Shown here piece by piece: positions 12,609-55,840 of a DNA stretch of 64,000 nucleotides (position 1 is its first letter; the number at the start of each line of letters is the position of its first letter). The stretch covers positions 101,763 to 165,762 of the forward strand of contig JAZRMF010000005.1 of assembly GCA_045647355.1 (NCBI GenBank). The letters run 5' to 3'. The translations under genes were made by a program, and so were the position numbers. This DNA comes from Candidatus Enterousia sp. GTDB lineage: Bacteria; Pseudomonadota; Alphaproteobacteria; Rs-D84. Below the pieces are notes generated by a model. The model did no database searches and was not told the DNA's origin. It saw only the letters and a list, made by a program, of their open reading frames with translations.

Positions 12609-12629
12609 CGCAAATGAACCAAATGGGAA

Positions 12630-12830
12630 TTTGGTTCGGGGCTGTCGAAAGCCTAAGTTAGCCGGTGCAAAGCATCGTAATATGTTATTTTACATGATTT
12701 TGCACCGTCATATATTCCCCGCGTTTTATGGTCGGGGTGCCGTTGGTGTATATATAAAGGCCACGGAATCTAAGCTAACTTGATTTTCGAACACCCCGAC
12801 CGTCAATTTCCGTTGACGGTTTATTTATGA
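12630..12830 (+). ncRNA. conserved structured 5' leader, copy 1 (candidate riboswitch/attenuator with terminator-like expression platform)
   Basis: shares GGTTCGGGG...CCGGTGCRAAGCATCGTAAT...TTTGCACCGT...TATGGTCGGGGTGCCGTTGG...CCCCGACCG + hairpin + T-run with copies at 40108-40313 and 46371-46582; stem covariation between copies. Confidence 0.6.
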
Positions 12831-12853
12831 AAAATGAATAGGGGGAATTTTTT

Positions 12854-37696: not shown

Positions 37697-37793
37697 AAAA
37701 TGTTTATAAAGTCCTTGACTTATAGGGAGTTTAGGTATAATACAAGCGCTGTTATTCGGGCATAGTTCAGTCGGTAGAACAACGGACTGTTAA
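37697..37793 (+). repeat. direct repeat A: tRNA-Asn promoter + 5' 38 nt of tRNA-Asn (through anticodon loop), degenerate tRNA remnant
   Basis: identical to 50029-50066 then diverges after CTGTTAA; 3' acceptor-like GCCCGAGCA follows after 4 nt. Confidence 0.8.
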
Positions 37794-37920
37794 CGGCGCC
37801 CGAGCACCCTCCCTAACAGACGATAATTGTGAAAGAATGCGCTAATAACCGCTGCTTATTAAGAAAAGAAATTTGACCGTTTACGCTAAAAGTCTATCAA
37901 TATATGGTTTAACTCCAGAT

Positions 37921-38060
37921 AACGTTTTACACGTGGTTTACACAGAATGTGTTTACACACAGTTTACACCACCTTTTCAACCCCGCAAAATGCCGTAACG
38001 CCGTTCCGTTGTCCTTGCTACACACGGTTTACACACCGGCTACACACAAAAGTGATTTAC
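37921..38060. repeat. iteron-like TTTACAC/CTACAC direct repeats
   Basis: cgttttacacgtggtNtacac also at 37621-37641 and 39598-39618; YTACAC motifs recur near 56015-56150. Confidence 0.5.
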
Positions 38061-38110
38061 ATGGTCAAAAAAGATGAGGAACACGAATTCTTGGTCCCCT
38101 GTTCTAAGCA

Positions 38111-38557
38111 TTATAAATGTACGATTTCAATATCTGGGATTTGGCTTGCGATGTATTCAGCTGCTAGCCGTCTGTGACACATATCGGCTGTCTTTTCTGT
38201 GCAAAGTAAACATATCCTGTCTAGTTTATGAGTATCAAAATTTCGCAGCGGGTTGCGCGCGTTTAACAATTCGCGATATTTCTGCTCGAACTCTGCCCAA
38301 GCAAGTTTTTTATCTTTATAATCGGCCAAAAATTCTCCGCTTGGTGCAAATTCTGGATGGTATTCATAACGGCTACCAAGCACCAACGCCAAATTATCGC
38401 CATTATAATATGGCACATAAGTGCTCGTCCGCCAAAGCCGAATGTCCCACACACAACTTATGCGTGCCGCTGACAGCACTTCCAGAAAAACTTCTGGTTT
38501 TTTGCCACTAAAACCAATCGTAAATATCTTTGTCATATCAGTATAAAAATAGCCCAT
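38111..38557 (-). CDS. DUF488 family protein
   Basis: IFTIGFSGKKPEVFLEVLSAARISCVWDIR matches DUF488 N-terminal pattern. Confidence 0.5.
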   Translation of the reverse strand: MGYFYTDMTKIFTIGFSGKKPEVFLEVLSAARISCVWDIRLWRTSTYVPYYNGDNLALVLGSRYEYHPEFAPSGEFLADYKDKKLAWAEFEQKYRELLNARNPLRNFDTHKLDRICLLCTEKTADMCHRRLAAEYIASQIPDIEIVHL

Positions 38558-38620
38558 TCAATATCAAATAGCAATGACAAACTATTTATGATACAATTTT
38601 ATGAAAGGATTCTATTAAAC

Positions 38621-39568
38621 ATGAATATTTCAACAGATAAATTGTTACACAATATCGTGATTGATTCGCGACAACAATATGCATTGTACCTTAAAACTAG
38701 GCAAGGTGTGATCGAACAATATGGCGGCAAAAGGACCAGTGATTACACGAATTTTCGTATGGCATCTGTAACAAAACAATTTATATCATTTTGTATTTTA
38801 TTTCTTATACAATCTCGACATATCGGCATAAACACACGATTATCACAAATCTTTGACGACATACCAGAATACATGAAAAGCATCACTATTCGTCATTTAC
38901 TAACTCATACATCTGGCCTTATTGATTACGAAGACAGACCCAAAATCAGCCGCAAACAAATAACAGATAAAAAAGTATTTGAGTATCTAAAAACTTTAAA
39001 ACATGCATATTTTAAACCAGGCACAAAATACAGATACAGTAATAGCGGCTATATTATATTGGGACAAATTATAGAAAAAATATCCAAAAAGAAATTGCCG
39101 GTTTTTGTTCACAACACTATATTAGCTCCCGCGCGTATGCACAACTCTCTCATATACACCCAAGACGTTTCTGTGATAAAAAATCGTGCATATGGACATA
39201 AAATAGACAAAAACAATCGGATAATTATTTGTGATCAAGGTCCTAATACAGCAACCCAGGGCGATGGCGGTCTTTATTCTTCCATACATGATTTGAAAAA
39301 ATACCTATATTTTATTCAGCACAACCCATTGGCATCAAAAATGTTTGTACCGAATATATTACCAAACAGTAAAAACACAGGATACGGATTTGGTTTACGA
39401 ATAATAAAGCACAAGAATTACAAAATTATATACCATTGTGGTGGAACAATAGGAACAAACACTATTGTTGGTTTTATACCACGTTTAGACATTGAATTCG
39501 CATTTATGACATCACTCGACGGCATAGATACTGAAATATTTTTAAGAAATCTTTTGCATTGTTTCTAG
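38621..39568 (+). CDS. serine hydrolase, beta-lactamase/PBP transpeptidase-fold family
   Basis: S-x-x-K motif ASVTKQF, YSN-like YSNSGY; start at MNISTDK with RBS aaagga. Confidence 0.65.
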   Translation: MNISTDKLLHNIVIDSRQQYALYLKTRQGVIEQYGGKRTSDYTNFRMASVTKQFISFCILFLIQSRHIGINTRLSQIFDDIPEYMKSITIRHLLTHTSGLIDYEDRPKISRKQITDKKVFEYLKTLKHAYFKPGTKYRYSNSGYIILGQIIEKISKKKLPVFVHNTILAPARMHNSLIYTQDVSVIKNRAYGHKIDKNNRIIICDQGPNTATQGDGGLYSSIHDLKKYLYFIQHNPLASKMFVPNILPNSKNTGYGFGLRIIKHKNYKIIYHCGGTIGTNTIVGFIPRLDIEFAFMTSLDGIDTEIFLRNLLHCF

Positions 39569-39672
39569 ACAAACAAATATTTTATCTTAATTTTTGCGTT
39601 TTACACGTGGTTTACACGAAGCCATTTTTTGCCCCAAAATGCGGATTTCTGGGACAGACAATTTTTATTTGC

Positions 39673-39769
39673 AAAATGTTCAGAAAGTCCTTGACTTGTG
39701 CGGATTTTAGAGTTATTATATCGCCTGTTATTCGGGCATAGTTCAGTCGGTAGAACAACGGACTGTTAA
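39673..39769 (+). repeat. direct repeat B: tRNA-Asn promoter + 5' 38 nt of tRNA-Asn
   Basis: as repeat A; followed by 275-bp segment shared with repeat C flank. Confidence 0.8.
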
Positions 39770-40045
39770 AATACCGGAAGTTCTTAGCAAAACCGTTTGA
39801 ACCCACCACAAAAAACCGCAGATTTCCGCGGATTTTTTTAACTCAAAATTTTTCAATTCTGATATCATATATGATATCTATGACATAGCATATTAGGGCG
39901 ATAAGTGGCAATAACTAGCACCTAATTTTGATAAAAACACATATTGACATACGGAGTCCATCGGTCATACGAAAAACATACCCAAAAACACCCCCGATTT
40001 TTCATATCCGAAATCAATAATGATATCATACGTGAAATTGTATTT
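39770..40045 (+). repeat. about 275-bp repeat following tRNA fragment (also 43887-44162), contains terminator and 19-bp palindrome
   Basis: aaaaaaccgcagatttccgcggattttttt terminator; tgatatcatatatgatatc palindrome. Confidence 0.8.
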
Positions 40046-40057
40046 GATTTTACACCA

Positions 40058-40086
40058 TTGAAATTTGATAAAAAGTATGTTAGAAT
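40058..40086 (+). promoter_or_regulatory. sigma70-like promoter TTGAAA-17-TAGAAT for leader copy 2
   Basis: conserved with copy 3 promoter. Confidence 0.55.
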
Positions 40087-40107
40087 TCCTAATGAATCCA
40101 AGAGATT

Positions 40108-40313
40108 GGGTTCGGGGCATGCTAAGCCCACTTCATTCGGTGCGAAAGCATCGTAATCTGATGTTATCGGTGTCTTTTGCACCGTTATCATCCCTGACTT
40201 ATGGTCGGGGGTTCGTTGGTGATACAACAGGGGTAACCCGAAAGCCACGAAATCAATAATGAAGTGATTTAGCAACTCCCCGACCGCCAATTTCCTTGGC
40301 GGTTCAATTTTTA
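40108..40313 (+). ncRNA. conserved structured 5' leader, copy 2
   Basis: see copy 1; terminator-like hairpin accgccaa-tttcc-ttggcggt + T-run immediately before RBS aggaga. Confidence 0.6.
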
Positions 40314-40327
40314 TAGGAGAGAATACC

Positions 40328-41272
40328 ATGAAAAGATGTTTAATTTTCGTATCAATATTAGCACTGGCAGCATGTACAACAGATAGTGGTGGTGGCAGCA
40401 GTGGCGGTTCGTATAATCATGGCATATCTGGAGGGTATAGCGGTACCACTACGAACAATAATACAAATGGTGGCAATAGCGGAGGTAATACTGGTGGTAA
40501 TACCAATAATCAACAAAACAATCAAGTGGTACATTATACAAACTTTAAACAATACTTTGATAATGTGTTACAACAAAATACAAATGGAGTGTATACAGAT
40601 TTTGTTGAAACTACACAAAGTTGGCCTTCCCAAGGAGGGTATAAACATTATGGATACAATGTAAACTCATCTACGGGTACACAACATAGCATATCGAAAT
40701 ATGTTGTTGAAGAAAAAGAAATGCAGCTCGCAAATTATGGTGTTCAAAATTATACTTATAAGCAGGATTTTGATAACGAATTCCATGATGCTAGCGAATA
40801 TTCTGCAACGGCATATGCACATAATCGTGAGGGTGTCGGGGCAAATTTATATACGCCACAAGAAAACACAGTTTTTAGTGGAGGAACGCTTGCTTATTTA
40901 GACACAAGCGGTCAACAAGCAGATATGTTCTTAAAAGGGAATGCCACATACACGTACAATTCAACCAACCCAGAATTGTTAATCGCATATGATAATTATT
41001 ATACATTCAATATAGTGAAAGGCGATGGTAACAGTGAAACCACGACTGTATCTGGTACAAATAATACAGGAAATGCTTATTACGATGTTACACCAGGAAC
41101 ATACACAGATAATTATGGGTATGATGCCACTTTCACACCAAATCACTTAAAAAAGGGGAATATAGAGGAAGCTGTTGGCACGTATCAACTAAATTTTGGT
41201 ACTGGGGATATTGGTGGTAACACAACAAACAATTTCTTTATACATGGTGCATTTGGTGGCGCAAAGCAGTAA
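40328..41272 (+). CDS. surface lipoprotein candidate (Gly/Ser/Asn-rich linker after lipobox Cys)
   Basis: lipobox LAAC then TTDSGGGSSGG; followed by TPR+barrel gene. Confidence 0.6.
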   Translation: MKRCLIFVSILALAACTTDSGGGSSGGSYNHGISGGYSGTTTNNNTNGGNSGGNTGGNTNNQQNNQVVHYTNFKQYFDNVLQQNTNGVYTDFVETTQSWPSQGGYKHYGYNVNSSTGTQHSISKYVVEEKEMQLANYGVQNYTYKQDFDNEFHDASEYSATAYAHNREGVGANLYTPQENTVFSGGTLAYLDTSGQQADMFLKGNATYTYNSTNPELLIAYDNYYTFNIVKGDGNSETTTVSGTNNTGNAYYDVTPGTYTDNYGYDATFTPNHLKKGNIEEAVGTYQLNFGTGDIGGNTTNNFFIHGAFGGAKQ

Positions 41273-41275
41273 ACA

Positions 41276-42640
41276 ATGCATAATAACATGCGTATTTTAG
41301 TTGGAATATGCACTGCGTTATTTATGTGGGTGTCTGCTGGATTCGCCGAACAAGTACAAACATTAGAACTAGATGATAAACAAGCGCTGGCATTGGCTAA
41401 CGATCTAGTAAATAAAGGCGATTTAAAGTCTGCTACAAATATTTTAGATGCTGTTATAAAAAGCGAGGATGAAAATGCACGTACAGTCGCATTATTTGAA
41501 ATGGGACGAGTGGCATTGGCTAGACACGATTATGCAACAGCAGAGCAAAATTTTCTGACCATATTGAATTGGTACCCAGAGGCAACATTTGTTCGTATGG
41601 AACTAGCCAAAACTTATTTTGCTGCTGGACAATACAGTAGCGCAGATTTTAATTTCCGTTTGGTACTGGCAGATAAGAGTTTATCTGACAATGAACAAAA
41701 ACTTGTACGGAACTATTTGAATTTAATTCGTAAACAAAGAAATTGGGATGTGTTTGCCAGTTTTTCTGTAGTTCCAGATTCAAACCTTAACTATGCCACA
41801 GGCAGAAGAGAAGAATGTATAAACACGATAGCAGGTACACTTTGTCGTGACTTAGAAGACAAATCGTCTGGGATTGGGTTGCAGTACAGTTTAGGTGGCG
41901 ATTATTACCTTAAATTGACCGACCATTTCGGTATAAAAACCAGTGCAGCTTTATATGCGTTGGATTTTCCAACATCAAAATTTGATGATTACATGTTTTA
42001 TGTGGCCGCAGGACCTCGTTACATAATAGATGGAATTGGCGAATTCAGTATCCAGCCATTTGCACAATTGCGCTGGTACGGCGACGAATATTATGACACT
42101 ATGCCAGGCATACGGGCTGATGCAGATTTTGATTTAACAAAGCGGTTGCATTTGTCTCTAGGGGGATCGTATAGCAGGGATATGTATCGTGACGATTCCT
42201 TGAATAGAATTTTGGGTGGCAACGAATATTCGATATACGTTCAGCCACGTTATTATATCAACAATAAAAGTTTCGTATTTGTAGGTACTGCTTATACGAA
42301 TGTCACAGCAAAACAAAAATCATACGGTAACCATGGGTTAAATTATTCCCTGGGATATTTCGCAGAATTGCCATTGACTTTGACTCTGCTTGCTAGGTTG
42401 GATCTGATACAAACAAGGTATAAAAAATCACAGTATTTTATAATGGAAGACAGTAACCTAGAATACTTCACAAGACGTGATACAACATACAGAACTTGTA
42501 TACGGCTATCAAGTCGTTATTTAGAATACAAGAGGCTTTATCCATCGATAAGCTATACTTACACCAGGCGCAACTCAAATGCTCCTATATACGAATTTGA
42601 CAAGCACAGATTTCAAATAGAGATGAACTACCGTTTTTAA
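41276..42640 (+). CDS. TPR + C-terminal beta-barrel outer-membrane protein, Slam/DUF560-like
   Basis: signal peptide, N-terminal TPR-like helices, C-terminal alternating beta pattern ending ...EMNYRF; about 70% identical paralog at 47313-48650. Confidence 0.5.
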   Translation: MHNNMRILVGICTALFMWVSAGFAEQVQTLELDDKQALALANDLVNKGDLKSATNILDAVIKSEDENARTVALFEMGRVALARHDYATAEQNFLTILNWYPEATFVRMELAKTYFAAGQYSSADFNFRLVLADKSLSDNEQKLVRNYLNLIRKQRNWDVFASFSVVPDSNLNYATGRREECINTIAGTLCRDLEDKSSGIGLQYSLGGDYYLKLTDHFGIKTSAALYALDFPTSKFDDYMFYVAAGPRYIIDGIGEFSIQPFAQLRWYGDEYYDTMPGIRADADFDLTKRLHLSLGGSYSRDMYRDDSLNRILGGNEYSIYVQPRYYINNKSFVFVGTAYTNVTAKQKSYGNHGLNYSLGYFAELPLTLTLLARLDLIQTRYKKSQYFIMEDSNLEYFTRRDTTYRTCIRLSSRYLEYKRLYPSISYTYTRRNSNAPIYEFDKHRFQIEMNYRF

Positions 42641-42655: not shown

Positions 42656-43474
42656 ATGAAAATTGTGAAACAAATAAATGAAGAACTTATACAAGACGTA
42701 TTATGTGTTCCGCCATATCCAATAATAAATGGTGAATTTATCCAAAATTACTTAAAGCAACCAAAAAATCGAAGAAAATTCTTTATAACGAAAGAAATCA
42801 TTTCGCCTATTAGACGTGCTTCGTATGCGACATATCATTACAGAGAATTAGACATTTTTAAAGAAGTACGCATCGTTATAGAATATGCGATTATTGCTTT
42901 TTATGATAATAACCCAATATGCTCTTATTTAAGTTTATTGGCTGTAATAGAAACACTATTGTGGAATTGGCACAAAGAAATCTCAAATACAAATAGACAA
43001 CGGCTGAAAGTAGCAACTCACGATATATCAATATATATCAAATCCAAAATTTCAGACAATTCCGAATATAATCAAAGAATATTGTTACTTACGGATTACT
43101 TGGAAGAAGCAATTAACATAGGATGGAGTCAAGGCAATAATGCACCAAAGAAAGAATTTAATAGGAACCTTTCATTACATTATCTGCAAAATGCTAATAA
43201 ATATGACATAAACTTACTAAATAACTGTAGAGCTTTGCTTATCATTGATGTTATTGCTGACTTATATTGCAGAACCCACTCAGACAAGTATAAGAAAATG
43301 CAATCTTTATATGACCTAGAATATAACCACTCGCTATTTGAGTTATATGCCAAATATTATCAAAAACTAAGTGTTCGAATGCTTGAAGGTGCACAAGGTA
43401 ATTTTATCCAAAACGTACTGTTGAAAGATAATATCACAAAAGCAGAAACAAAACATATCATGAGTCTTATGTAG
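42656..43474 (+). CDS. hypothetical protein
   Basis: ORF only. Confidence 0.4.
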   Translation: MKIVKQINEELIQDVLCVPPYPIINGEFIQNYLKQPKNRRKFFITKEIISPIRRASYATYHYRELDIFKEVRIVIEYAIIAFYDNNPICSYLSLLAVIETLLWNWHKEISNTNRQRLKVATHDISIYIKSKISDNSEYNQRILLLTDYLEEAINIGWSQGNNAPKKEFNRNLSLHYLQNANKYDINLLNNCRALLIIDVIADLYCRTHSDKYKKMQSLYDLEYNHSLFELYAKYYQKLSVRMLEGAQGNFIQNVLLKDNITKAETKHIMSLM

Positions 43475-43559
43475 TCCCACAGAATACAACACGTACAAAT
43501 AATCATACGAAACGACATACAGTCAGTTCGTCCGTTGTTTTTTTATAGCATGAAATCAT

Positions 43560-43886
43560 CATTGATTTCGACTGTGATTTTACTAAAAACGACACACAGA
43601 ATATTCTGTGTGTCCCTGTTAGCACTTTACACATGGTCACGCACAAAAAATACACAACAAACAACAAGTTATATTTTACAGGAATCAGGTGCTAATTTTC
43701 ACTTTTTGCTTTCGTGTACGTATATGTGAAAAAATCACACAAAATCACACGCAAGCCGCAGAAAACTGACCCCAAAATTTGTAGTATAAAATATTCAGAA
43801 AGTCCTTGACTTGTGCGGATTTTAGGTATAATATAGGGTCTGTTATTCGGGCATAGTTCAGTCGGTAGAACAACGGACTGTTAAAA
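43560..43886 (+). repeat. direct repeat C: about 330-bp tRNA-Asn upstream region + promoter + 5' 38 nt of tRNA
   Basis: about 90% identical to 49740-50066. Confidence 0.8.
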
Positions 43887-44157
43887 TACCGGAAGTTCTT
43901 AGCAAAACCGTTTGGACCCATCGCAAAAAACCGCAGATTTCCGCGGATTTTTTTAACTCAAAATTTTTCAATTCTGATATCATATATGATATCTATGACG
44001 TAGCATATTAGGGCGATAACTGGCAATAACTAGCACCAAATTTTGATAAAAACACATATTGACATACGGAGTCCATCGGTCATACGAAAAACATACCCAA
44101 AAACACCCCCGATTTTTCATGTCCGAAATCAATGATGATATCATACATGAAATCTGG

Positions 44158-44520: not shown

Positions 44521-44703
44521 TATATGGATTATAAACTAAAACACAAATTAAAAACATGCCCAAAATACTGCAATAAAAAATGCTAGGTTTCTGGGTGTTT
44601 GCTGCTATTCTATGAACTTTTTATGAATAAATTAAAATGAATAAATAACTGGACTTTCGCCGAAAGATATTGATGAATACGACAACCTTAAAAAGGATTG
44701 TCG

Positions 44704-44910
44704 ATGAAGTATAAACATTTTCGGGAAATTGAGCCCAATAACAAGACAGATTTTATTATGCTCTACTTCGCAGCATGCCGATCGTTACACGAATTAGAGA
44801 ACGCTATACGCAGAACAAACAATGGTAATTTAACCTGCAAACAGACATGGCTGTTTCGCCGCTTGTACCGCAAACTATTCCAAATGGCAGCATCGTGGAA
44901 AACACAATAG
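44704..44910 (+). CDS. small conserved basic protein (paralog at 50439-50657)
   Basis: two copies about 80% identical, each with RBS; located at cassette edges. Confidence 0.5.
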   Translation: MKYKHFREIEPNNKTDFIMLYFAACRSLHELENAIRRTNNGNLTCKQTWLFRRLYRKLFQMAASWKTQ

Positions 44911-46089: not shown

Positions 46090-46327
46090 GTTATAATATA
46101 AAAAACAGGAGATTTTATGCAAAATTGTATTTCTTGCTCTTTCGCAAAGGTGAAAGTTGCACAGGATCTTAGATCTATTGCTAGTGGTATAGCATCAAAG
46201 GCGATAGAGGAGTTAAAGGCTACAAAACGTTCTACTAATAATAGAGATAAGAAAAAAATTTAATGTAAAAAAAACAACAAAGTTTTAAAGGTCGGTATTT
46301 CAATACCGACCTTTTTCAATAAGAAAA

Positions 46328-46356
46328 TTGAAATTTTATAAAAAGTATGTTAAAAT
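46328..46356 (+). promoter_or_regulatory. sigma70-like promoter TTGAAA-17-TAAAAT for leader copy 3
   Basis: conserved with copy 2. Confidence 0.55.
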
Positions 46357-46370
46357 TCCTCATGAATCCA

Positions 46371-46582
46371 AGAGATTGGGTTCGGGGTCTTTACAAACCC
46401 GCTTTATCCGGTGCGAAAGCATCGTAATCTGATGTTATCGGTGTCTTTTGCACCGTTATCATCCCTGACTTATGGTCGGGGTGCCGTTAGCGATAAAACA
46501 GGGGCAACCCGAAAGCGCGGGGTCAATGATAAAGCGACTGTAAACACTCCCGACCGCTCTTTCTTGGGCGGTTTTAATTTAT
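46371..46582 (+). ncRNA. conserved structured 5' leader, copy 3
   Basis: see copy 1. Confidence 0.6.
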
Positions 46583-46601
46583 TCAACAAAGGGGGCACCC
46601 C

Positions 46602-47309
46602 ATGAAACCATTTGTCGTTTTATTATCCATCTTGTCTTTAACTGCTTGCGGTGGTGGTAGTGGTGGTAGTTCCCCCTCTAATCCTGGTCCAGTTAACCCA
46701 GGCAACCCGAACGTTCCGGGTATAGATGATGAATTAACCGCAGCGGAACAATTGTTTGGTCAAGGTAATGGCACAGGTGCTACACCAACAGCATTGTTAG
46801 CAAGGACCGATAATTTAGGGTTTGATTATTTATCTTTTGGGGCTTGGGGTAATATTTATAATTTGAAGGAATCCGATACAACAAAATTACTTAAAATACT
46901 TGTTCCTGGCGAACCAACATACAATGCGTTTATTAGCGGTAACCATCTTGAATTTACGACCCAACAATTAGAAACAATGCAAAATTGGACGCATACAAAA
47001 GATAGTCGTGTAGCAGAAGCAACATATACGGGGCCAGCCATTATGTATTATATGCCATTTAATCCATCTGGTGCTGTGACAGAATCAGACCATGGAACAA
47101 TGCAACTCAGTTTTGGGCAAGATATAGCAAATTCTGTTTTGAATTTTGTTATGCATAATCCGTCAAACAACATATCTCTCAATTCTGCCGATGATGTTTA
47201 TAGCACAAATTTCTCTGAAGATATGAATAATGTGGTAGTTGTGTATGGTATGTGGGAAAATAATGCTCACAACCTTAGGGTTTATCATGGCTACGGGTCA
47301 AAACAATAA
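46602..47309 (+). CDS. surface lipoprotein candidate
   Basis: lipobox LTAC then GGGSGGSSPSNPG linker. Confidence 0.6.
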   Translation: MKPFVVLLSILSLTACGGGSGGSSPSNPGPVNPGNPNVPGIDDELTAAEQLFGQGNGTGATPTALLARTDNLGFDYLSFGAWGNIYNLKESDTTKLLKILVPGEPTYNAFISGNHLEFTTQQLETMQNWTHTKDSRVAEATYTGPAIMYYMPFNPSGAVTESDHGTMQLSFGQDIANSVLNFVMHNPSNNISLNSADDVYSTNFSEDMNNVVVVYGMWENNAHNLRVYHGYGSKQ

Positions 47310-47312
47310 CTC

Positions 47313-48650
47313 ATGAAAAAAACTTTTTGTGTTTTGTTATTTTTGATTCCCACACTTGTAGTTGCACAAACAACTGATGTCACATATAACGATTCCTTGG
47401 AGTTTGCAAAAAAGCAAATTGTTGGTGGAAATTATGCACAAGCAGAAAAAACTTTGCGAAATTTAAATGGCACCAAAAACACCCAAGAAGAAATAGAAAA
47501 ATGGTTTCTGCTTGGTCAAGTTTATATGGCACAAGGTGACTTTAATACTGCAATAAAGATTTACAGAAAAATCTTAGATAAACAACCCGACTTGTCCAGA
47601 GTCCGTTTAGAATTAGCAAGGGCATTGTTTTTTAATAAACAGTATCAAGAAGCAGAAAATAATTTTTTGTTTGTTCGAGCCGACCACAATACCCCAAATG
47701 AAGTTGTGCAAAAAATTAACTTATTTTTGACCGCTATCAGACAACAAAGAAACTGGTATGCTAATTTTTCGTTTGGTATTGTTCCTGATTCAAACCTTAA
47801 TTATGCCACTGGACGACGTGAAGAATGTATAAATACAATGTTTGGTATTTTGTGTCGTGAATTGGATGACAAATCATCTGGTGTTGGCCTTCAGTATGGA
47901 CTTGGTGGGGATTATTATATAAAAATGACAGATAATTTCGGCATCAAAACCAGTGCATCGTTATATGCCCTTGATTTTTCAAATTCCACATTTGATGATT
48001 ATATGCTGTATATGGCAGCAGGTCCTAGATATGTCCTGGGCGGTATTGGCGAAATCAGTGTTCAACCGTTCACTCAATTACGTTGGTACGGTGGAGAGTA
48101 TTATAATACTGTCCCCGGTGTGCGTGCAGACATAGATTTGGATTTATCAAAACGTATTCGATTATCATTTGGTGGTTCATATAGTAAAGATATGTACCAC
48201 GACGATGATTTAGACGATATTTTACGTGGGGACGAATACACAACCTATATTCAGCCTAGATATTACATAAACAACAAAAGTTTTACATTTGTCGGTTTGT
48301 CTTATACAACCAACACAGCAAAATTAAAATCATATGGCAGTAATAGTATGTATTATTCTATTGGTTATTTTGGTGAATTGCCTTGGACCCTATCATTGTA
48401 TGCCAGGTTAGATTTAACACAAACAAAATACAAAGATTCACAATTCTTTATAATGGATGATTACACAGTAAATAAATTTACACGACGTGACATCGGTTAT
48501 CGTGCATATTTACGTCTATCCAGTCGTTATTTGGAATACAAACGATTGTATCCTGCAATCAGTTACACATACACTAAACGTGATTCAAATGCTCCTGCGT
48601 ATGATTTTGATAAGCATAGATTTCAAATCGAAATGAATTATAGATTTTAG
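47313..48650 (+). CDS. TPR + beta-barrel outer-membrane protein, Slam/DUF560-like (paralog)
   Basis: see 41276-42640; ends ...EMNYRF. Confidence 0.5.
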   Translation: MKKTFCVLLFLIPTLVVAQTTDVTYNDSLEFAKKQIVGGNYAQAEKTLRNLNGTKNTQEEIEKWFLLGQVYMAQGDFNTAIKIYRKILDKQPDLSRVRLELARALFFNKQYQEAENNFLFVRADHNTPNEVVQKINLFLTAIRQQRNWYANFSFGIVPDSNLNYATGRREECINTMFGILCRELDDKSSGVGLQYGLGGDYYIKMTDNFGIKTSASLYALDFSNSTFDDYMLYMAAGPRYVLGGIGEISVQPFTQLRWYGGEYYNTVPGVRADIDLDLSKRIRLSFGGSYSKDMYHDDDLDDILRGDEYTTYIQPRYYINNKSFTFVGLSYTTNTAKLKSYGSNSMYYSIGYFGELPWTLSLYARLDLTQTKYKDSQFFIMDDYTVNKFTRRDIGYRAYLRLSSRYLEYKRLYPAISYTYTKRDSNAPAYDFDKHRFQIEMNYRF

Positions 48651-49537: not shown

Positions 49538-49985
49538 ATTTGACCTTTCTTTATTATACGTATAGAAGTATGATATAGTGCCTTGTGTAAATCAACAAAT
49601 TTTATTAAATTACCCATTTGCGACCCAAACCATACATTCCAAATAGGAGGTGCGTTTGGTGGACCAAAACAATAGTTAAATATTACCCACAAAAAAGCAA
49701 CGGACGATTTGTCCGCTGTTTTTTGCTTAACCTAAAATCAACATTGATTTCAATTGTGATTCTGCTAAAAACGACATATAGAATATTCTGTGTGTCGCTG
49801 TTAGCACTTTACATATGGTCACGCACAAAAAACACACAACAAACAACAAGTTATATTCCAAAGGAATCAGGTGCTAATTTTCACTTTTTGCTTTCGTGTA
49901 CGTATATGTGAAAAAAACACACAAAATCATACGAAAGCCGCAGAAAACTGACCCCAAAATTTATAGCATAAAATATTCAGAAAGT

Positions 49986-50015
49986 CCTTGACTTGTGCGG
50001 ATTTTAGGTATAATA
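49986..50015 (+). promoter_or_regulatory. tRNA-Asn promoter (TTGACT ... TATAAT)
   Basis: -35/-10 about 7 nt upstream of mature tRNA 5' end; duplicated in repeats A-C. Confidence 0.6.
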
Positions 50016-50028
50016 TAGGGTTCGTTAT

Positions 50029-50104
50029 TCGGGCATAGTTCAGTCGGTAGAACAACGGACTGTTAATCCGTATGTCACTGGTTCGAGTCCAGTTGCCCGA
50101 GCCA
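50029..50104 (+). tRNA. tRNA-Asn (anticodon GTT)
   Basis: acceptor TCGGGCA/TGCCCGA + G + CCA, anticodon loop CTGTTAA, T-loop GGTTCGAGTCC; 76 nt. Confidence 0.9.
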
Positions 50105-50142: not shown

Positions 50143-50438
50143 TTTATTTTTGTCTATGGCAATTTGTTCTGGTATAAAATGCAAAAAAGTGTTAAAAATC
50201 GCAAATAATTATACCAGAGTTATACACGGCTTGTAGAAAAAACGCCTATAAAAACGATTGCAAAACCAGTATTTACAAGCCTCTCAGAAGATTATATGCC
50301 CCTGAGAACAACGGAACGAAGTCCGTATATCTGCTTGTATACAAAATGTATACATTTTTAATTATCAGATTTCCAAGAAACGACTGGACTTTTGTTAAAA
50401 GATAAGGACAAATACAACAACTTTTAAAGGGGTTGTAC

Positions 50439-50657
50439 ATGAAATACAAACATTTTCAAGAAATTGAGCCGAGCAATAAAACTGATTTTATTATGCTCTA
50501 CTTCGCGGCGTGTAGATCATTACGCGAATTGGAATCGAATGTACGATACAAACAAAACGGAAATCTAACCTGCAAACAGGCATGGCTATTCCGCCGTTTG
50601 TATCACAAATTATTTCAAATGGCTGCATTATGGAAAAACGACGATGATCGCCCATAA
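50439..50657 (+). CDS. small conserved basic protein (paralog of 44704-44910)
   Basis: RBS aaagggg; about 80% identity to other copy. Confidence 0.5.
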   Translation: MKYKHFQEIEPSNKTDFIMLYFAACRSLRELESNVRYKQNGNLTCKQAWLFRRLYHKLFQMAALWKNDDDRP

Positions 50658-50678: not shown

Positions 50679-52133
50679 CTATTTTAGAGATGTGAGATCT
50701 AATTTTTTCAATAGCTCCCCTTCATCTTGTAACATAAATTCTATCAATGGGCTAAGATTTGCAACAAATGTGTCACAATCCGAAGGCGTTGCGCTAACCT
50801 TGTCGTTATGAATAATTTGCTGAATGTTATCAATATTAAAAGAAGAAAAAGCTCTCTTCATACTCAACTCTGAAATTAGTTTTGTAAACAATTCGGACAA
50901 TACGGCAAAATCCGTAAAAGGCTTTTTGGTCCCTTTCTTTGTTCTAAAAGCATCATTAAAATATTCATAACTAGACAATTTCTTATCTTGGTATTTTGTG
51001 TTGTCTAAAACCCATTTCAAAGTACATTCAAACACTATTCTTATCATAGCCATCTTCGCATTAGGAACCTGCTGACTATTGAGTTTCATGAACAATTCAT
51101 CTATTTTGTATTCAAGAGATTTAGAACGATTTTTTCTTGTCAAAACCGGTTTTTTTTGAACAGAACCTCGTAAACTTTTGTTTTTTGGGCTATCTACACC
51201 TTTTTCAGGTGCCGCGACAACATCTGGCAAAACACCATCGTACTTTTTTTCATTCCCCATACTCAAATTTGATTCATTTTTAGAATTGAAACTCAACCCC
51301 AATTCCGGCTGAGAACTACCTGTTTCTGTTATTTCTATTTTACGCAGAAAATCTTGCTGTTGTTCCGGCTTATCTACATCATAATATGATGCGTCTGGAT
51401 TTTTTTGTAAATATTCAACTACATTATTGATATATTTTTTAAACAACTTATTATCAGTTATTATCAATTTATATTTTTCGTTTTTACCCCCGAAATCGTA
51501 TCCACAAATTTTTCTGGACCGAAACAATCTCTCTAAGAAAGCTAATTTTCCACCTTTCTTTCCAGAGCTTCTAACCAATTCCTTAAAATTTTCTCCGCCA
51601 TGTTTTACAGCCTCATAGTAAAAATTTGCGATTTTCATAAAATCTCCGACATTAGAATCAATCGCCTGAATATCATCACTCGATGCTCCCGCAATAAACA
51701 ATCGGTGTATTTCTAAAGCTTTTGCTATACGACTCCATGCCCTAAACGATGGAGTCGCATGTTTTTCCCTTATTCTTTTTTCCAACAAACGTTCATCGTC
51801 ATAAATTATAGCAGGTAACTCTTGTATGTCAAACTTATCAACATTTAATCCAAAAACATCTGGATTTGATAACGCAACTACGGCCGCAGCTCGCCTATTT
51901 CCTTCTTTTACAAGATACGAACCATCATGTTGTTTTACCACCCACAAAGCTTCGTCAGGATAATATTCGTGTTTATCTAGTATATTATCAACTATTTCAT
52001 GTGCATTTTCTTCATTAAGTAAATATAAAATAATTTCTTTTTGTGTGGTACCAGAATATAGGTCCGCAAATCTAGGATTGTGCGAATCCAATACCAAATT
52101 CTCTCTTTTTACATACTCTATTTTATGCTTCAT
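50679..52133 (-). CDS. ParB/Srx-fold N-terminal domain protein (defence-island associated)
   Basis: ParB-N-like LVLDSHNPRF...VKEGNRRAAAV; long uncharacterised C-terminus. Confidence 0.5.
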   Translation of the reverse strand: MKHKIEYVKRENLVLDSHNPRFADLYSGTTQKEIILYLLNEENAHEIVDNILDKHEYYPDEALWVVKQHDGSYLVKEGNRRAAAVVALSNPDVFGLNVDKFDIQELPAIIYDDERLLEKRIREKHATPSFRAWSRIAKALEIHRLFIAGASSDDIQAIDSNVGDFMKIANFYYEAVKHGGENFKELVRSSGKKGGKLAFLERLFRSRKICGYDFGGKNEKYKLIITDNKLFKKYINNVVEYLQKNPDASYYDVDKPEQQQDFLRKIEITETGSSQPELGLSFNSKNESNLSMGNEKKYDGVLPDVVAAPEKGVDSPKNKSLRGSVQKKPVLTRKNRSKSLEYKIDELFMKLNSQQVPNAKMAMIRIVFECTLKWVLDNTKYQDKKLSSYEYFNDAFRTKKGTKKPFTDFAVLSELFTKLISELSMKRAFSSFNIDNIQQIIHNDKVSATPSDCDTFVANLSPLIEFMLQDEGELLKKLDLTSLK

Positions 52134-52202
52134 TATAAACCGCCTTTATCTAACAGATAATACTTGATAACCTGTGCCATTTTAACGAACTTTTTTTATT
52201 TT

Positions 52203-53096
52203 TCAACATATTAAGTCAGTATCAGGTATATTAAGAATTTTGTCTGAAAAGAACAATATTTCTTTTCCTCGTTTTCCTGTGGCTCTTAAACAATACTGTA
52301 AATCAAATTCTTGTTTGGCTTCATCATCTACCCAATCATATAAATTCCGAATCTCTTGCACATTATCATAACTAAGAATCCATTTACATTTAAGTTTTCT
52401 TATTGCTTCAGAAATGTCCTTATGGTCTTTTGGTTTATACCAATTCTGATATAGTTGTGGGCCTTTCTTAAAGTAGGGAGGGTCTAAATAAAGTAAGCAA
52501 TTTCCTCTTAATACCTTTAACATCGATCTATCAGTTAACAACTTTAATGCATCTACGGAGGAAATATGTATTTTATCCTTGAATTCAGATATTCTTCTTA
52601 TTTTATTTATTAACTCATTTTTGTTAAACCGACAATCTATTTTATATTTCCCCATCTGCGATTTTCCACCTATAACCCCCCCCTTCAATATACCGGAATG
52701 GTTACATCTATTTAAATAAAAAGCGGCAAAGCCCAAATCAAATTTTTGTTTATCGGATTCGTGCAAATTTGCCTTATATATTTTTGTTTGTTTTTCCCAT
52801 TCTTCTATGGTCACTTCTATTCTTTTTATTTTGCCAATAAATTTATTTGTATTATTCACAATATTGTACCAGAAACAATATATTGAAGGATCCGCATCAT
52901 TTATATATATCTCTGAAACATACCCTTCTATTAACAAACCCAATGCAACAGCTCCCCCGCCTGCATAAAGCTCCACATAACAAGGTTTGACATTGTCAGG
53001 AAAATTAGATTTTATGGTTTCTTTCATAAAATCTAATATTCTTGCTTTTCCACCAGGATATCGTAAAGGCGAATTATTTTTTGACATCTTTTGCAA
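52203..53096 (-). CDS. Dam-family (D12 class) N6-adenine DNA methyltransferase
   Basis: LRYPGGK motif, ELYAGGGAV, catalytic DPPY. Confidence 0.75.
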   Translation of the reverse strand: MQKMSKNNSPLRYPGGKARILDFMKETIKSNFPDNVKPCYVELYAGGGAVALGLLIEGYVSEIYINDADPSIYCFWYNIVNNTNKFIGKIKRIEVTIEEWEKQTKIYKANLHESDKQKFDLGFAAFYLNRCNHSGILKGGVIGGKSQMGKYKIDCRFNKNELINKIRRISEFKDKIHISSVDALKLLTDRSMLKVLRGNCLLYLDPPYFKKGPQLYQNWYKPKDHKDISEAIRKLKCKWILSYDNVQEIRNLYDWVDDEAKQEFDLQYCLRATGKRGKEILFFSDKILNIPDTDLIC

Positions 53097-53156
53097 AAAA
53101 CCTTCTAATTTTATATTTAGAATAATACAACATAAAACGCTTCACAAAAACAAACC

Positions 53157-53876
53157 TTATTTTTTATATTTAATATATCCAGCAACCTTTTCTATAAAAC
53201 TTTCAAAATTATTGATTACAACCCCAGATTGAAAACGGTCTTTAAATTCGTCATCAAGGCCAAGATCCTTATCTCTAAAAAATTCGTTATATTCAGCTTT
53301 ATTGTTAATATTATTATCTGCAATAGACTCCGATAATGTTACTACATAAATCAACGTCTGGGTCGGTGTGTGAAGAAGCAGTTCTATATTATCTTCTGAT
53401 AATTTAATATACTTACGCAAATTATGTTCGTTAATGTGTTCTACTCTAATGATCTTGTTATTCTTATTATAATAAGGTAATTCTTTTAACAAAACCAAAA
53501 CCTGAAAATAAGGAATATTGTTACATCTTATATTAGCGGTCTCCCCCAACATATTTTCAAAATAATTATTAGAATTTTGTTGATAATTACTCATAACAAA
53601 TTTGAAGCCTATCGCCGCTAAAACAACGTTACCTTTGCATACCGCAATATCCACATTCTTGTCCATGTATCTACCAGCAATTGACATTTCGCCACCACGT
53701 TGTCCCGGTCTCAAAGAACAAAAAGTCAACTCAGGATCGTTCAATTTCGTTTTTAAAGAATCCGATATAAAAGAATGTATCGGTTTTAACTTTTCATTGC
53801 TGCGCGAACCGGTACTTAAATATAAACGAAAAGATTCTTTCACCTTATCCAAAAAGGCGCAATTGACGTTTGGCAT
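53157..53876 (-). CDS. putative type II restriction endonuclease
   Basis: sandwiched between two MTase genes with 32-nt overlap; PD-(D/E)xK-like DIAVCK / IGFKF segments; weak. Confidence 0.4.
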   Translation of the reverse strand: MPNVNCAFLDKVKESFRLYLSTGSRSNEKLKPIHSFISDSLKTKLNDPELTFCSLRPGQRGGEMSIAGRYMDKNVDIAVCKGNVVLAAIGFKFVMSNYQQNSNNYFENMLGETANIRCNNIPYFQVLVLLKELPYYNKNNKIIRVEHINEHNLRKYIKLSEDNIELLLHTPTQTLIYVVTLSESIADNNINNKAEYNEFFRDKDLGLDDEFKDRFQSGVVINNFESFIEKVAGYIKYKK

Positions 53877-55308
53877 CTTGTGTATCTCCTTTTAACATAT
53901 AGGTCAAATACTTTTCCAATTCTAGCGAAGAAAATGTAAAGTATCCACCACTTTTATATTTCTTTAATGCTTTTACATATTTTATAAATTTAGGGTCATA
54001 AATAACACGCTTTATATCATCAAAACTATAATCTGACAATATGTATAAACCACTATACACACCAGAACCAGCAGGAACATTTATTAGTTTTATACTGCTT
54101 TCATCTTTAATTAACGTGTTAATAGATACTTTATTTTTGAAAACATCTTTGATTCCTTGGCTTCTTCCAAACAAATACCAATGCCCAGCAAAATCAATAG
54201 CTCGTTTTTCTAATTTATCTTTAAACGATTGCAAATGTGTGTATGCGGACATAAAATTTTGCTTTATAAAAGATTCTTCCATAGGCACACCAGGAAAAAC
54301 ATATGGGAACAAGCATTTTGTCCATTTGCCGGTAGAAGCTTTTACAACATCAATATATATGTTCTCTGATGATTTAAAATCTTGAATAAAACACGTATCT
54401 GCCAATGTAGCAAAACCATTCTTTACAACTATGCTACGTTTTACCTGATCTTTGTAAAAAGAATCTATGTCCGATAATAACTTTAACGTGTCTTCATCAT
54501 CAAAGGACATTGTGCCATGCTTAAAAACAGTATCATACGGCAAATTAAAACTATCCTTTGTACTATGTTCTACATACTGGATCTCATCGTGTGTTATCCC
54601 GTTGTCAAACAAAGTAATAGCTGTATATGCCGATATACCATCAAACACTTGTTCTTGACCTAAATCAACAACCATTGATAATTTTTTGTTTTTATTTATA
54701 CATGCTCGGCAATTTTTACCAGACTTACTAGTCATAAATGAACTGGGGGTAATCAAACACATTTTTCCGCTTTTATTGAGCTGCTTTAATCCAAGTTCAA
54801 TAAAAACTAAATACAAGTCGATCATACCATCTTGTGCAAATGAGAATTTTTTTGCCAAATCATAATTTTCCAAATTGTGAACTCTAACGTAAGGCGGATT
54901 TCCAACAACAAAATCCATTTTATGATCGTACTTACTTACAATTAAAGCATCTTCATTCACAATATCCCATGCTACATTTTGTATACCATATTGAAGAACA
55001 ATGGTATCCAAACGTTTTATACATTTTGTGTATTCATTTTTATCTAATTCAATACCATGAATGTATGTTTCTAAATCGTGTTTCAAACGGCTTATATCAT
55101 TATTTGCAATAGAAACGAAAGCATCACAATATCTGTGAACGATTTCGGACAAAAACGCGCCATCGCCACAACTGTTTTCCATTATATGTTTTGATAAGAT
55201 ATCTTTGCCACTGAATGCCAAATAATCCAGCATTTCCTGCACGATGCTGAACGGGGTATAAACGCCTCCCATATTCTTTACCCTATGTTGCTTGGCTATT
55301 ACTTCCAT
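53845..55308 (-). CDS. N6-adenine DNA methyltransferase (gamma-class, Eco57I/HsdM-like)
   Basis: GGVYTP motif, SAM-binding ENSCGDGAFL, catalytic NPPY. Confidence 0.75.
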   Translation of the reverse strand: MEVIAKQHRVKNMGGVYTPFSIVQEMLDYLAFSGKDILSKHIMENSCGDGAFLSEIVHRYCDAFVSIANNDISRLKHDLETYIHGIELDKNEYTKCIKRLDTIVLQYGIQNVAWDIVNEDALIVSKYDHKMDFVVGNPPYVRVHNLENYDLAKKFSFAQDGMIDLYLVFIELGLKQLNKSGKMCLITPSSFMTSKSGKNCRACINKNKKLSMVVDLGQEQVFDGISAYTAITLFDNGITHDEIQYVEHSTKDSFNLPYDTVFKHGTMSFDDEDTLKLLSDIDSFYKDQVKRSIVVKNGFATLADTCFIQDFKSSENIYIDVVKASTGKWTKCLFPYVFPGVPMEESFIKQNFMSAYTHLQSFKDKLEKRAIDFAGHWYLFGRSQGIKDVFKNKVSINTLIKDESSIKLINVPAGSGVYSGLYILSDYSFDDIKRVIYDPKFIKYVKALKKYKSGGYFTFSSLELEKYLTYMLKGDTQDAKRQLRLFG

Positions 55309-55399
55309 ATATCCTTTCCCTTAATAAAAACTTAGCCCAAAACAATGTATAAAGTCAAGTAGAACAATTAAAAAACGGGGGGCCGCACAAAAATATAAG

Positions 55400-55840
55400 C
55401 TACTGCAACTTTTCTTTTATTCCCAATTCTTGACGCATCTTAGTCGCTAGTTTTACTATTTTATCTGCCATTTCATTTGATTTTGCCTCTATCTGCTTTT
55501 GACTATGCATTGTATCGTAACAATTACATATTTCTGTATCCAACGCATAGTATGCATCGTAAATCTTTTTAGATGCATATATCAACATTTGCCCCTGCAA
55601 TGCATTAAACATTGTTTTACATTTCTTTGACCATTCATGGGAACGACGATACTTTTCATGTTCCATTAAAACCTGGCACACATTGATATATAACTCTTCT
55701 CGTTTTTGTTTTATATAAAGTTCCCTGTCACGTTTGCTTTTTAAGAAGTCCACAAACCATGTAAAACCAGCTGTCAATAATGCCCCAAGAATAATTCCAA
55801 ATAATTGAGACGAAAAGAAATCAGACCACGTCATTATCAT
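55400..55840 (-). CDS. hypothetical membrane protein
   Basis: N-terminal TM helix, coiled-coil remainder. Confidence 0.4.
   Translation of the reverse strand: MIMTWSDFFSSQLFGIILGALLTAGFTWFVDFLKSKRDRELYIKQKREELYINVCQVLMEHEKYRRSHEWSKKCKTMFNALQGQMLIYASKKIYDAYYALDTEICNCYDTMHSQKQIEAKSNEMADKIVKLATKMRQELGIKEKLQ

Follow-up and report, generated by a model that had tools for sequence, protein, structure and literature searches.

What is the function of a lipoprotein gene that is followed immediately by a gene for an outer-membrane barrel, that lies behind a conserved leader and that is set between fragments of a tRNA gene in an uncultured gut bacterium? This question is raised by positions 40058-42640 of a 64,000-nucleotide stretch of Candidatus Enterousia sp. 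DNA (contig JAZRMF010000005.1 of assembly GCA_045647355.1; hereafter the window), in which a promoter and a leader precede a lipoprotein gene and then a gene for a protein with a signal peptide, a tetratricopeptide repeat (TPR)-like region and a beta-barrel. Our analysis indicates that the two genes (encoding 314 and 454 residues), which have a leader of their own and are carried on a small mobile islet, very likely form a type 11 secretion system (T11SS, or Slam) module. The hidden Markov model (HMM) E-values, repeat identities and covariation statistics given below exclude a chance origin. The parts of the module and of its second copy are:

40058..40086, + strand: sigma-70-like promoter of the module (-35 hexamer TTGAAA at 40058, 17-nucleotide spacer, TAGAAT, upstream TG)
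40089..40318, + strand: structured 5' leader RNA of about 230 nucleotides (P1 hairpin, multi-helix domain, three internal hairpins, terminal hairpin)
40315..40320, + strand: ribosome-binding site AGGAGA, 7 nucleotides before the lipoprotein ATG, as judged from the sequence
40328..41272, + strand: putative surface-lipoprotein cargo, 314 residues (lipobox LAAC with Cys16; tether, residues 17-64; predicted all-beta handle-plus-barrel, residues 65-314)
41276..42640, + strand: predicted Slam/T11SS outer-membrane protein, 454 residues (signal peptide; TPR-like region, residues 34-154; 14-strand barrel, residues 157-453)
46327..48650, + strand: second module, on the next islet (leader copy 2; lipoprotein gene 46602-47309, 235 residues; Slam gene 47313-48650, 445 residues)

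The lipoprotein gene stops with TAA at 41270-41272 and the next ATG is at 41276, leaving a spacer of 3 nucleotides, rather than the 4 counted in an earlier reading of this DNA made without database searches (the sequence-only reading), and this spacing suggests translational coupling of the two genes.

That reading had proposed a Slam/DUF560 translocon beside its surface-lipoprotein substrate, and the profile and structure searches that it called for bear the proposal out. PF04575 (SlipAM, formerly DUF560) matches residues 157-454 of the 454-residue protein from end to end of the profile (positions 1-288 of 288; E 1.3e-33; 117.2 bits against a cut-off of 22) and matches the copy-2 Slam protein equally well (117.6 bits, 1e-33). 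The N-terminus is a hydrophobic signal (…ALFMWVSAGFA/EQ), followed by helices to about residue 154 and then by beta strands up to the aromatic C-terminus NYRF, as had been claimed, and the helical region scores just above the TPR_19 cut-off (25.5 bits against 25). An AlphaFold model built from 43 homologues (mean predicted local distance difference test score, pLDDT, of 90.1) shows a signal helix, seven helices over residues 34-154 and 14 long strands over residues 157-453, with no POTRA fold of the kind expected in an Omp85 protein; in the model and the homologue alignment, a short hairpin at residues 179-192 holds two invariant cysteines. Foldseek superposed the barrel best on the 14-strand barrels OmpG and FadL, with a template modelling score (TM-score) normalised to the target of 0.68-0.73 for OmpG. 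The T11SS barrel has been described as 14-stranded with a TPR domain (PMC8406197), and on its profile match and predicted fold the 454-residue protein is assigned as a Slam/T11SS outer-membrane protein, which would translocate its partner to the cell surface. The likeness to Slam1 and Slam2 of Neisseria meningitidis, NilB, HsmA and HrpB extends to the full-length PF04575 match, signal peptide, periplasmic TPR, predicted 14-strand barrel and aromatic end, and also to the position of the gene on a mobile island beside a gene for a lipoprotein with a C-terminal barrel. The differences are that named relatives are only about 40% identical, that the barrel has the Cys-Cys hairpin insertion at residues 179-192, and that the module comes from an uncultured gut alphaproteobacterium with a reduced genome (order Rs-D84). 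Classical Slam systems are regulated by iron through Fur, whereas here the Slam gene sits behind a structured RNA leader. The vicinity has no genes for TonB, a TonB-dependent receptor or haem functions.

The 314-residue protein begins with MKRCLIFVSILALAAC and, read by eye, has a lipobox L-A-A-C with Cys16 followed by about 50 Gly/Ser/Asn-rich residues, so that the tether directly after the lipobox cysteine, first noticed in the sequence-only reading, is indeed present. In the AlphaFold model residues 1-64 are disordered (pLDDT below 50), and residues 65-314 are all-beta (pLDDT above 90 over most of this range), with a handle domain followed by the C-terminal eight-strand beta-barrel that had been anticipated from known Slam cargo; such a barrel defines T11SS cargo (PMC12282271). 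The best matches in a comparison of folds were fHbp (10.7), two hemophilins (10.5 and 10.0), PmSLP-1 (9.9), a haemophore (9.8), fIbp (9.7) and the TbpB C-lobe (9.6), with LbpB and HpuA lower in the list, and all of these, from fHbp to HpuA, are known Slam/T11SS substrates. The protein has 27 homologues, all of them unnamed metagenome proteins, which have in common the lipobox and a C-terminal ...GAFGG(T/S)KQ (...GAFGGAKQ in the window protein); Cys16 is kept in 25 of 28 aligned sequences, and two of the three exceptions are N-terminally truncated. A profile search of 1.8 billion cluster representatives recovered about 35 full-length relatives and no bridge to known cargo families, the rest of the matches being to a tail-fibre-like tether motif only (profile positions about 20-68), which is absent from the window cargo. 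Compared with the TbpB C-lobe, fHbp, NHBA, HpuA, HphA and PmSLP-1/fIbp, the window cargo is alike in its lipobox, flexible tether, C-terminal ending of the ...FGGxKQ type and rapid divergence relative to the translocon, but it belongs to a small lineage-restricted family, has no detectable sequence similarity to them (7-16% identity in structural alignments), and some members of that family have the tail-fibre-like motif SAYQIWLxxGNTGTEQDFLDSL in the tether. Its predicted fold marks it as Slam-type cargo, from a new family that escapes detection by sequence models.

The tether varies within this family. Many cargo homologues (P0063, P0064, P0068 and P0073-P0085) carry the motif PGKSAYQIWLDQGNTGTEQDFLDSLV there, whereas the tether of the window cargo is plain Gly/Ser/Asn. 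In the representative library the tether motif of the homologues matches long multi-repeat proteins of up to 2782 residues.

Several results weigh against assigning the pair to type 11 secretion. TPR_Slam scores 24.7 bits in the copy-1 Slam protein, under its cut-off of 35.2, although it exceeds the cut-off in copy 2 (52.3 bits, 8.6e-14). A PDB sequence search with the Slam protein gave weak TPR matches only, and the PDB holds no solved Slam structure for direct comparison. The cargo has no Pfam domain at E values up to 0.1, including TbpBBD (PF01298), no meaningful NCBIfam match and no PDB sequence match, so that its assignment is a prediction from fold and gene adjacency, and neither a TonB-dependent receptor nor another partner that suggests a function was found near the module. 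One might also suppose that the TPR-plus-barrel protein exports exopolysaccharide, as do porins of the PgaA/BcsC/PelB type, and that the lipoprotein assists it in the periplasm as a PelC-like accessory partner, since the TPR-plus-barrel exporters BcsC and PelB (PelBC) received the best Foldseek E-values and PF04575 includes some PgaA homologues (PMC8406197). We consider this very unlikely: those Foldseek matches have low TM-scores (0.34-0.38) and high root-mean-square deviations, the model shows 14 long strands rather than 16, PF04575 is matched end to end, the islet holds no glycosyltransferase, synthase or deacetylase genes, and the adjoining lipoprotein has a predicted Slam-cargo fold.

In the T11SS reading, both proteins would be exported by Sec. 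The 314-residue protein would receive its lipid at Cys16 and travel to the outer membrane, where the 454-residue protein would be inserted as a 14-strand barrel with its TPR domain in the periplasm. The Slam protein would then recognise the C-terminal barrel of the cargo and move the cargo to the cell surface, where it would hang from its lipid anchor by the flexible, approximately 50-residue Gly/Ser/Asn tether.

The pairing of a lipoprotein gene with a Slam gene recurs in related metagenome loci (numbered here from L001 and found in L001-L016, L027, L070 and L073). Cargo lies directly beside the T11SS gene in the same pairing in L009/L010, L011, L016, L027, L070 and L073, several cargo genes precede one Slam gene in L001-L008, and in L025 and L076 a cargo gene lies behind the leader with no adjacent Slam gene. 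The closest Slam protein from a named assembly (P0005, Enterousia assembly GCA_045614245.1) is 76% identical. Two further Slam homologues at about 40% identity (P0031 and P0032) are labelled as Endomicrobiia and Elusimicrobiota metagenome-assembled genomes (MAGs), outside the Proteobacteria, which horizontal transfer or mis-binning could explain.

Cargo and translocon have diverged at very different rates. The two window Slam proteins are 58% identical, and their cargo proteins are unrelated beyond the signal peptide; Slam2 is 89% identical to its L012 counterpart and the cargo 43%, and Slam1 is 76% identical to its L009 counterpart and the cargo 44%. We infer that this is the pattern of surface-exposed proteins under diversifying selection, and since the cargo diverges far faster than the translocon, it most likely binds a host or partner-cell target and is itself under such selection.

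How the module came to this position can be read in part from the repeats that surround it. Its linkage to tRNA, which the sequence-only reading had noted, is real, and truncated 5' halves of a tRNA-Asn gene bound the islets:

37756..37793: truncated tRNA-Asn copy 1, a 5' half that ends after CTGTTAA
39732..39769, + strand: truncated tRNA-Asn copy 2, a 5' half that ends exactly after the anticodon loop CTGTTAA; left border of the module islet
39770..40056, + strand: left arm of the module islet, of which 39770-39972 has a 95%-identical counterpart at 43885-44087, where the next islet begins
39816-39831, bidirectional: terminator hairpin in the left arm, from a terminator scan
43538..43884, + strand: right end of the module islet, comprising the sequence upstream of tRNA-Asn, the promoter and the third truncated 5' half (copy 3, 43847-43884); 92% identical to 49720-50066
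50029..50104, + strand: intact tRNA-Asn (GTT), with the sole 3' half in the window; right-hand anchor of three tandem islets

All three truncated 5' halves are identical to that of the intact gene and stop after CTGTTAA (at 37793, 39769 and 43884), whereas only one tRNA-Asn 3' half (50078-50100) occurs in the window and a displaced one was not found there. Copy 2, which scores 14.3 bits with the Rfam tRNA model, is preceded at 39691-39719 by a copy of the tRNA promoter (TTGACT-17-TATTAT). The islets that start at 39770 and 43885 have the same arm (95% identity over about 200 nucleotides) and each contains a leader-lipoprotein-Slam module. The same truncation point is found in L025 and L031, from other genomes. 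Most simply, the tandem islets would have arisen by successive site-specific integration at the tRNA-Asn anticodon loop: the module rides on a 4.1-kb, integrase-less islet, one of three that such recombination would have stacked, each of which would have brought a fresh promoter and tRNA 5' half, with the newest islet beside the intact gene. Counting against this scheme, no integrase or recombinase was found among the ORFs (open reading frames) of the island, in its flanks or elsewhere in the 64-kb window, and the islets are therefore non-autonomous or fossil.

Tandem islets of the cis-mobilizable element (CIME) type at tRNA genes offer the nearest comparison. They too have direct repeats of part of the tRNA between islets, one intact tRNA at the end, related arms, and defence and surface cargo. 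Here, however, the repeat consists of the promoter and the tRNA 5' half, the crossover point is where the anticodon loop ends on its 3' side, and no integrase lies within 64 kb. The usual tRNA-targeted elements carry the tRNA 3' end. Since a degenerate tRNA-like 3' part and a terminator come after both copy 2 and copy 3, a short RNA may still be made from them.

What, then, is the leader? The sequence-only reading had seen in it a conserved element with riboswitch-like control of the module. That it is conserved and structured is borne out by the analyses below; that it belongs to the Slam module in particular is not. Copies were located with nhmmer (copy 1 scores 230 bits). Besides copy 1, the features to which we refer are:

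46327-46601, + strand: recurrence of the leader (copy 2) ahead of the second lipoprotein and Slam pair, the leader RNA itself being 46359-46589
12612..12834, + strand: third leader copy, outside the island, upstream of a gene for a 335-residue secreted protein (12854-13861)
40282..40314, + strand: terminator-like hairpin GACCGCC...GGCGGTT (helix 10; hairpin 40282-40304) with an interrupted T-run; its 5' arm overlaps CCCCGACC

The multi-helix domain is closed by a GGGG/CCCC helix and two long-range helices. The leaders ahead of the two Slam modules are 85% identical to one another and have single-sequence minimum free energy z-scores of -6.9 (copy 1) and -6.0. RNAalifold analysis of 68 distinct copies gave a structure of 50 pairs, 27 of which show compensatory changes. 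Within this structure 96.6% of cells are paired, with 367 double-change cells compared to 107 +/- 9.5 in shuffled alignments, and none of 500 shuffles reached any of the observed covariation measures. When partners were slid by 1-3 columns, pairing fell to 38-54%. The long-range helices (alignment columns 58-62/241-245 and 71-77/222-231) vary at every position. Several of the dominant pairs are G-U; the opposite strand would show A-C mismatches at these places, and the structure is therefore that of a transcript of the gene strand. In 66 copies a -35/-10 pair lies at the same distance from the start of P1, ending 7-9 nucleotides before the first helix, and the upstream sequence otherwise differs. 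Because each copy has its own -35/-10 pair and diverges further upstream, conservation begins at the transcription start. No Rfam 15 family matched the leader at its gathering score, and the window together with 18 other leader loci returned only tRNAs. The leader is thus a real structured RNA without an Rfam 15 family, and it appears to be undescribed.

Two other identities for the conserved sequence were tried and rejected. The leader does not encode a peptide, as the starting ATG is not conserved and insertions and deletions are not multiples of three. Nor is it a DNA repeat or an attC-like site, as the dominant G-U pairs fit one strand only and the conserved part sets in where transcription begins.

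The genes behind the leader show how far it extends beyond secretion. A strict form of the leader pattern occurred at 70 loci among 185,579 species-representative genomes, all of them MAGs and nearly all from gut or rumen with the labels Candidatus Enterousia sp., Alphaproteobacteria bacterium or uncultured proteobacterium; a few are labelled otherwise (Clostridia, Oscillospiraceae, Gastranaerophilales, Rickettsiales). The first ORF usually begins about 100-130 nucleotides after the pattern. The leader heads lipoprotein and Slam modules twice in the window and in L009/L010, L012, L027, L070 and L073. In addition, it heads genes for giant proteins with autotransporter-like ends, outer-membrane barrels, Listeria-Bacteroides-repeat proteins and an ankyrin-repeat protein, for lipopolysaccharide (LPS)-modifying enzymes (a GT8 glycosyltransferase and an Acyl_transf_3 acyltransferase), and for restriction-modification functions (C5, N6/N4 [type III Mod] and Eco57I DNA methyltransferases and a ResIII helicase). 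About three-quarters of the 52 first genes lack a Pfam family and the rest fall into unrelated classes, whereas the Slam loci L001-L008, L011 and L016 have no leader. The leader is therefore a generic accessory-gene leader of Rs-D84 (Enterousia-like) gut alphaproteobacteria rather than a Slam-specific element. Surface structures and restriction-modification systems are 'contingency' loci in Neisseria, Haemophilus and Helicobacter, and by analogy the set of leader-headed genes resembles the contingency loci of host-adapted bacteria. The conserved leader sequence may also serve as a 5' homology anchor for cassette exchange between strains.

As regards mechanism, the anatomy of the leader, as drawn from its sequence, looks like that of an attenuator. 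The last hairpin, helix 10, is present in all copies and begins right after the CCCC strand that closes the main domain. In the conserved fold, GGUCGGGG (40203-40210) pairs with an upstream CCCUGAC. Alternatively, the same segment (GGTCGGGG in the DNA) could pair with CCCCGACC (40278-40285), a pairing that is possible in 543 of 543 alignment cells. Formation of this helix would break up three elements together, namely the closing helix, hairpin P6 and the terminator 5' arm. Because two mutually exclusive folds can be drawn and a terminator-like hairpin lies at the end, the leader probably sets the extent of transcription read-through into the genes; the operon, driven by its own promoter, would in this way be tuned by its approximately 230-nucleotide leader. 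Two points speak against such switching: the T-run after the last hairpin is interrupted, which makes terminator activity uncertain, and the alternative helix has no covariation of its own.

The best sub-threshold Rfam match, and the only one that recurs, is sRNA-Xcc1 (RF02221), which aligns with the 3' sub-domain of the leader, at 38.2, 23.3 and 21.2 bits for the three window copies compared to a gathering score of 53; none of the 18 further leader loci matched sRNA-Xcc1 at the gathering level. This RNA has been found to precede cargo genes both in integron cassettes and in APSE phages (10.1101/2025.06.18.660453; 10.1101/2020.03.17.996009). Positions 40203-40293 of the leader align to the whole model and have in common with it the outer helix GGUCGGGG/CCCCGACC, an inner hairpin whose loops are AUACAA...GAAA, and one further hairpin; each of the two RNAs occurs in front of cargo genes on mobile DNA. 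Nevertheless, the leader is about 2.5 times longer, its covariation favours other pairing for both strands of the outer helix, and the inner hairpin is missing from many copies. The likeness is thus a lead rather than membership.

Three other accounts of the leader have to be weighed against these observations. If the repeated leader and the tRNA halves were functionless remnants of a recent segmental duplication, the 85% identity of leaders 1 and 2 and the 92-95% identity of the islet arms would be expected, but the leader occurs in 70 MAG loci, compensatory changes maintain its helices, many of its dominant pairs are G-U and make sense on the transcribed strand only, it is more conserved than the coding sequences that follow, and the tRNA truncation point is identical in independent genomes; we regard this explanation as exceedingly improbable. 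A metabolite or second-messenger riboswitch specific to the Slam module, close to what the sequence-only reading had envisaged, would account for the large, conserved and strongly covarying structure, the terminator-like hairpin and an alternative helix, pairable in every one of the 68 copies, that would interfere with the terminator 5' arm, and the lack of a matching Rfam family is in keeping with it. Such a riboswitch is nevertheless rather unlikely, as the downstream genes have no common function, the gene set points to no ligand, and the leaderless Slam loci named above do without it, although the leader may respond to a global signal, for example a second messenger.

The leader could instead act without a small-molecule ligand, either as a docking site for a protein (an antiterminator of the NusG-paralogue or RAT type) or as a cis-acting antitermination or stabilising RNA similar to put or EAR, allowing AT-rich acquired genes to escape termination. 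Consistent with this, the leader lies at the very 5' end of accessory-gene transcripts only, including those of genes of 1000-1700 codons, conservation of the RNA begins where transcription does although every copy is served by a separate promoter, and the 3' sub-domain is nearest to sRNA-Xcc1 in all three window copies. Set against it are that no partner protein was identified and that the sRNA-Xcc1 scores (38, 23 and 21 bits) all fall below 53, leaving ligand-free action a reasonable candidate at somewhat less than even chances. Our own proposal, held as tentatively, spans both kinds of response: the leader may be a new class of cis-regulatory RNA, a global-signal riboswitch or a factor-dependent or self-acting antiterminator, which would serve as one common switch over T11SS modules, autotransporters, outer-membrane proteins, LPS enzymes and methyltransferases in Rs-D84.

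The remaining features of the window concern the neighbours of the module and of the leader. Within the module islet, the Slam stop codon is followed after 16 nucleotides by one further gene:

42656..43474, + strand: 272-residue ORF

It is probably co-transcribed with the Slam gene. It has no match in Pfam, NCBIfam, PADLOC or PHROG, and no homologue was found in the related Slam loci, so that it is not conserved beside Slam genes elsewhere.

The neighbours of the islets are genes of the defence type, for a DUF488 protein (PDC-M45C), a PD-Lambda-5_A-like protein, D12 and Eco57I methyltransferases and a HEPN-like protein. The first islet (37794-39731) contains divergent genes for the DUF488 protein (PADLOC PDC-M45C, 2.8e-32) and for a protein of the serine beta-lactamase/penicillin-binding protein fold (PF00144, 5e-40). 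To the right of the tRNA-Asn gene, a block of 31-35% G+C (50679-55840) with the PD-Lambda-5_A-like gene, the D12 adenine methyltransferase, the Eco57I/N6 methyltransferase and ORFs of no known function appears to be a defence island. Downstream of tRNA-Asn copies lies a small ORF of 70-74 residues in two copies that are 81% identical (44698-44910 and 50433-50657). Pfam and PHROG gave no family for this ORF. Other genomes have it at 14 loci with a leader, which it mostly precedes by 0.05-3 kb on the same strand, and it could be a hotspot border gene or a regulator. A 368-residue ORF at 44983-46089 matches phrog_5990 (7e-59), and a 92%-identical copy lies in a horse-faeces MAG (L018, 4076-5176) beside a leader-driven Dcm methyltransferase. 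Leader-headed cassettes also abut tRNA genes or arrays in L012 (6524-7009), L017 (5254-5481) and L027 (1851-1924), which suggests that such cassettes tend to insert at tRNA loci of any kind, as hotspots. Finally, the 335-residue protein behind the third leader copy has no Pfam family; its C-terminal part resembles leader-headed proteins in L028, L078 and L085 and also a stretch of a 1344-residue ORF on the - strand (59959-63993), itself without a Pfam family and possibly a large surface protein.

T11SS have been described across the Proteobacteria, including Sphingomonadaceae and Rhodobacteraceae (PMC8406197, PMC12282271), so that the view of Slam systems as mainly a property of Neisseria and related Proteobacteria, from which the sequence-only reading started, is too narrow; cluster 1 T11SS, moreover, are reported to occur together with mobile islands (PMC12282271). 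Taxonomically, then, the module is no surprise. What is new is its host lineage, a cargo family invisible to sequence models and its location on tRNA-Asn islets stacked in tandem. Enterousia, from the uncultured order Rs-D84, has genomes of about 0.7-1.6 Mb that lack the tricarboxylic acid cycle and respiratory chains; a published analysis found in them no standard sugar, amino acid or peptide transporters and suggested that hypothetical membrane proteins may serve in transport or cell interactions (PMC12306168). The module extends type 11 secretion to this genome-reduced gut lineage (Candidatus Enterousia/Rs-D84), whose lifestyle is largely a matter of inference, and adds a cargo family that was revealed by fold comparison only. 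The presence of two modules on stacked islets in a genome of about 1 Mb, together with the fast divergence of their cargo, points to strong selection on the cell surface. The real potential for novelty lies in the leader, which is lineage-wide, present in several copies and placed ahead of many kinds of accessory genes: a large covarying RNA that recurs within a small genome and has no entry in Rfam 15 is a testable candidate for a new class of regulatory RNA. If the proposed common switch is correct, these bacteria would use an RNA to control, as one regulon, the kind of 'contingency' genes that are subject to phase variation elsewhere among host-adapted bacteria.

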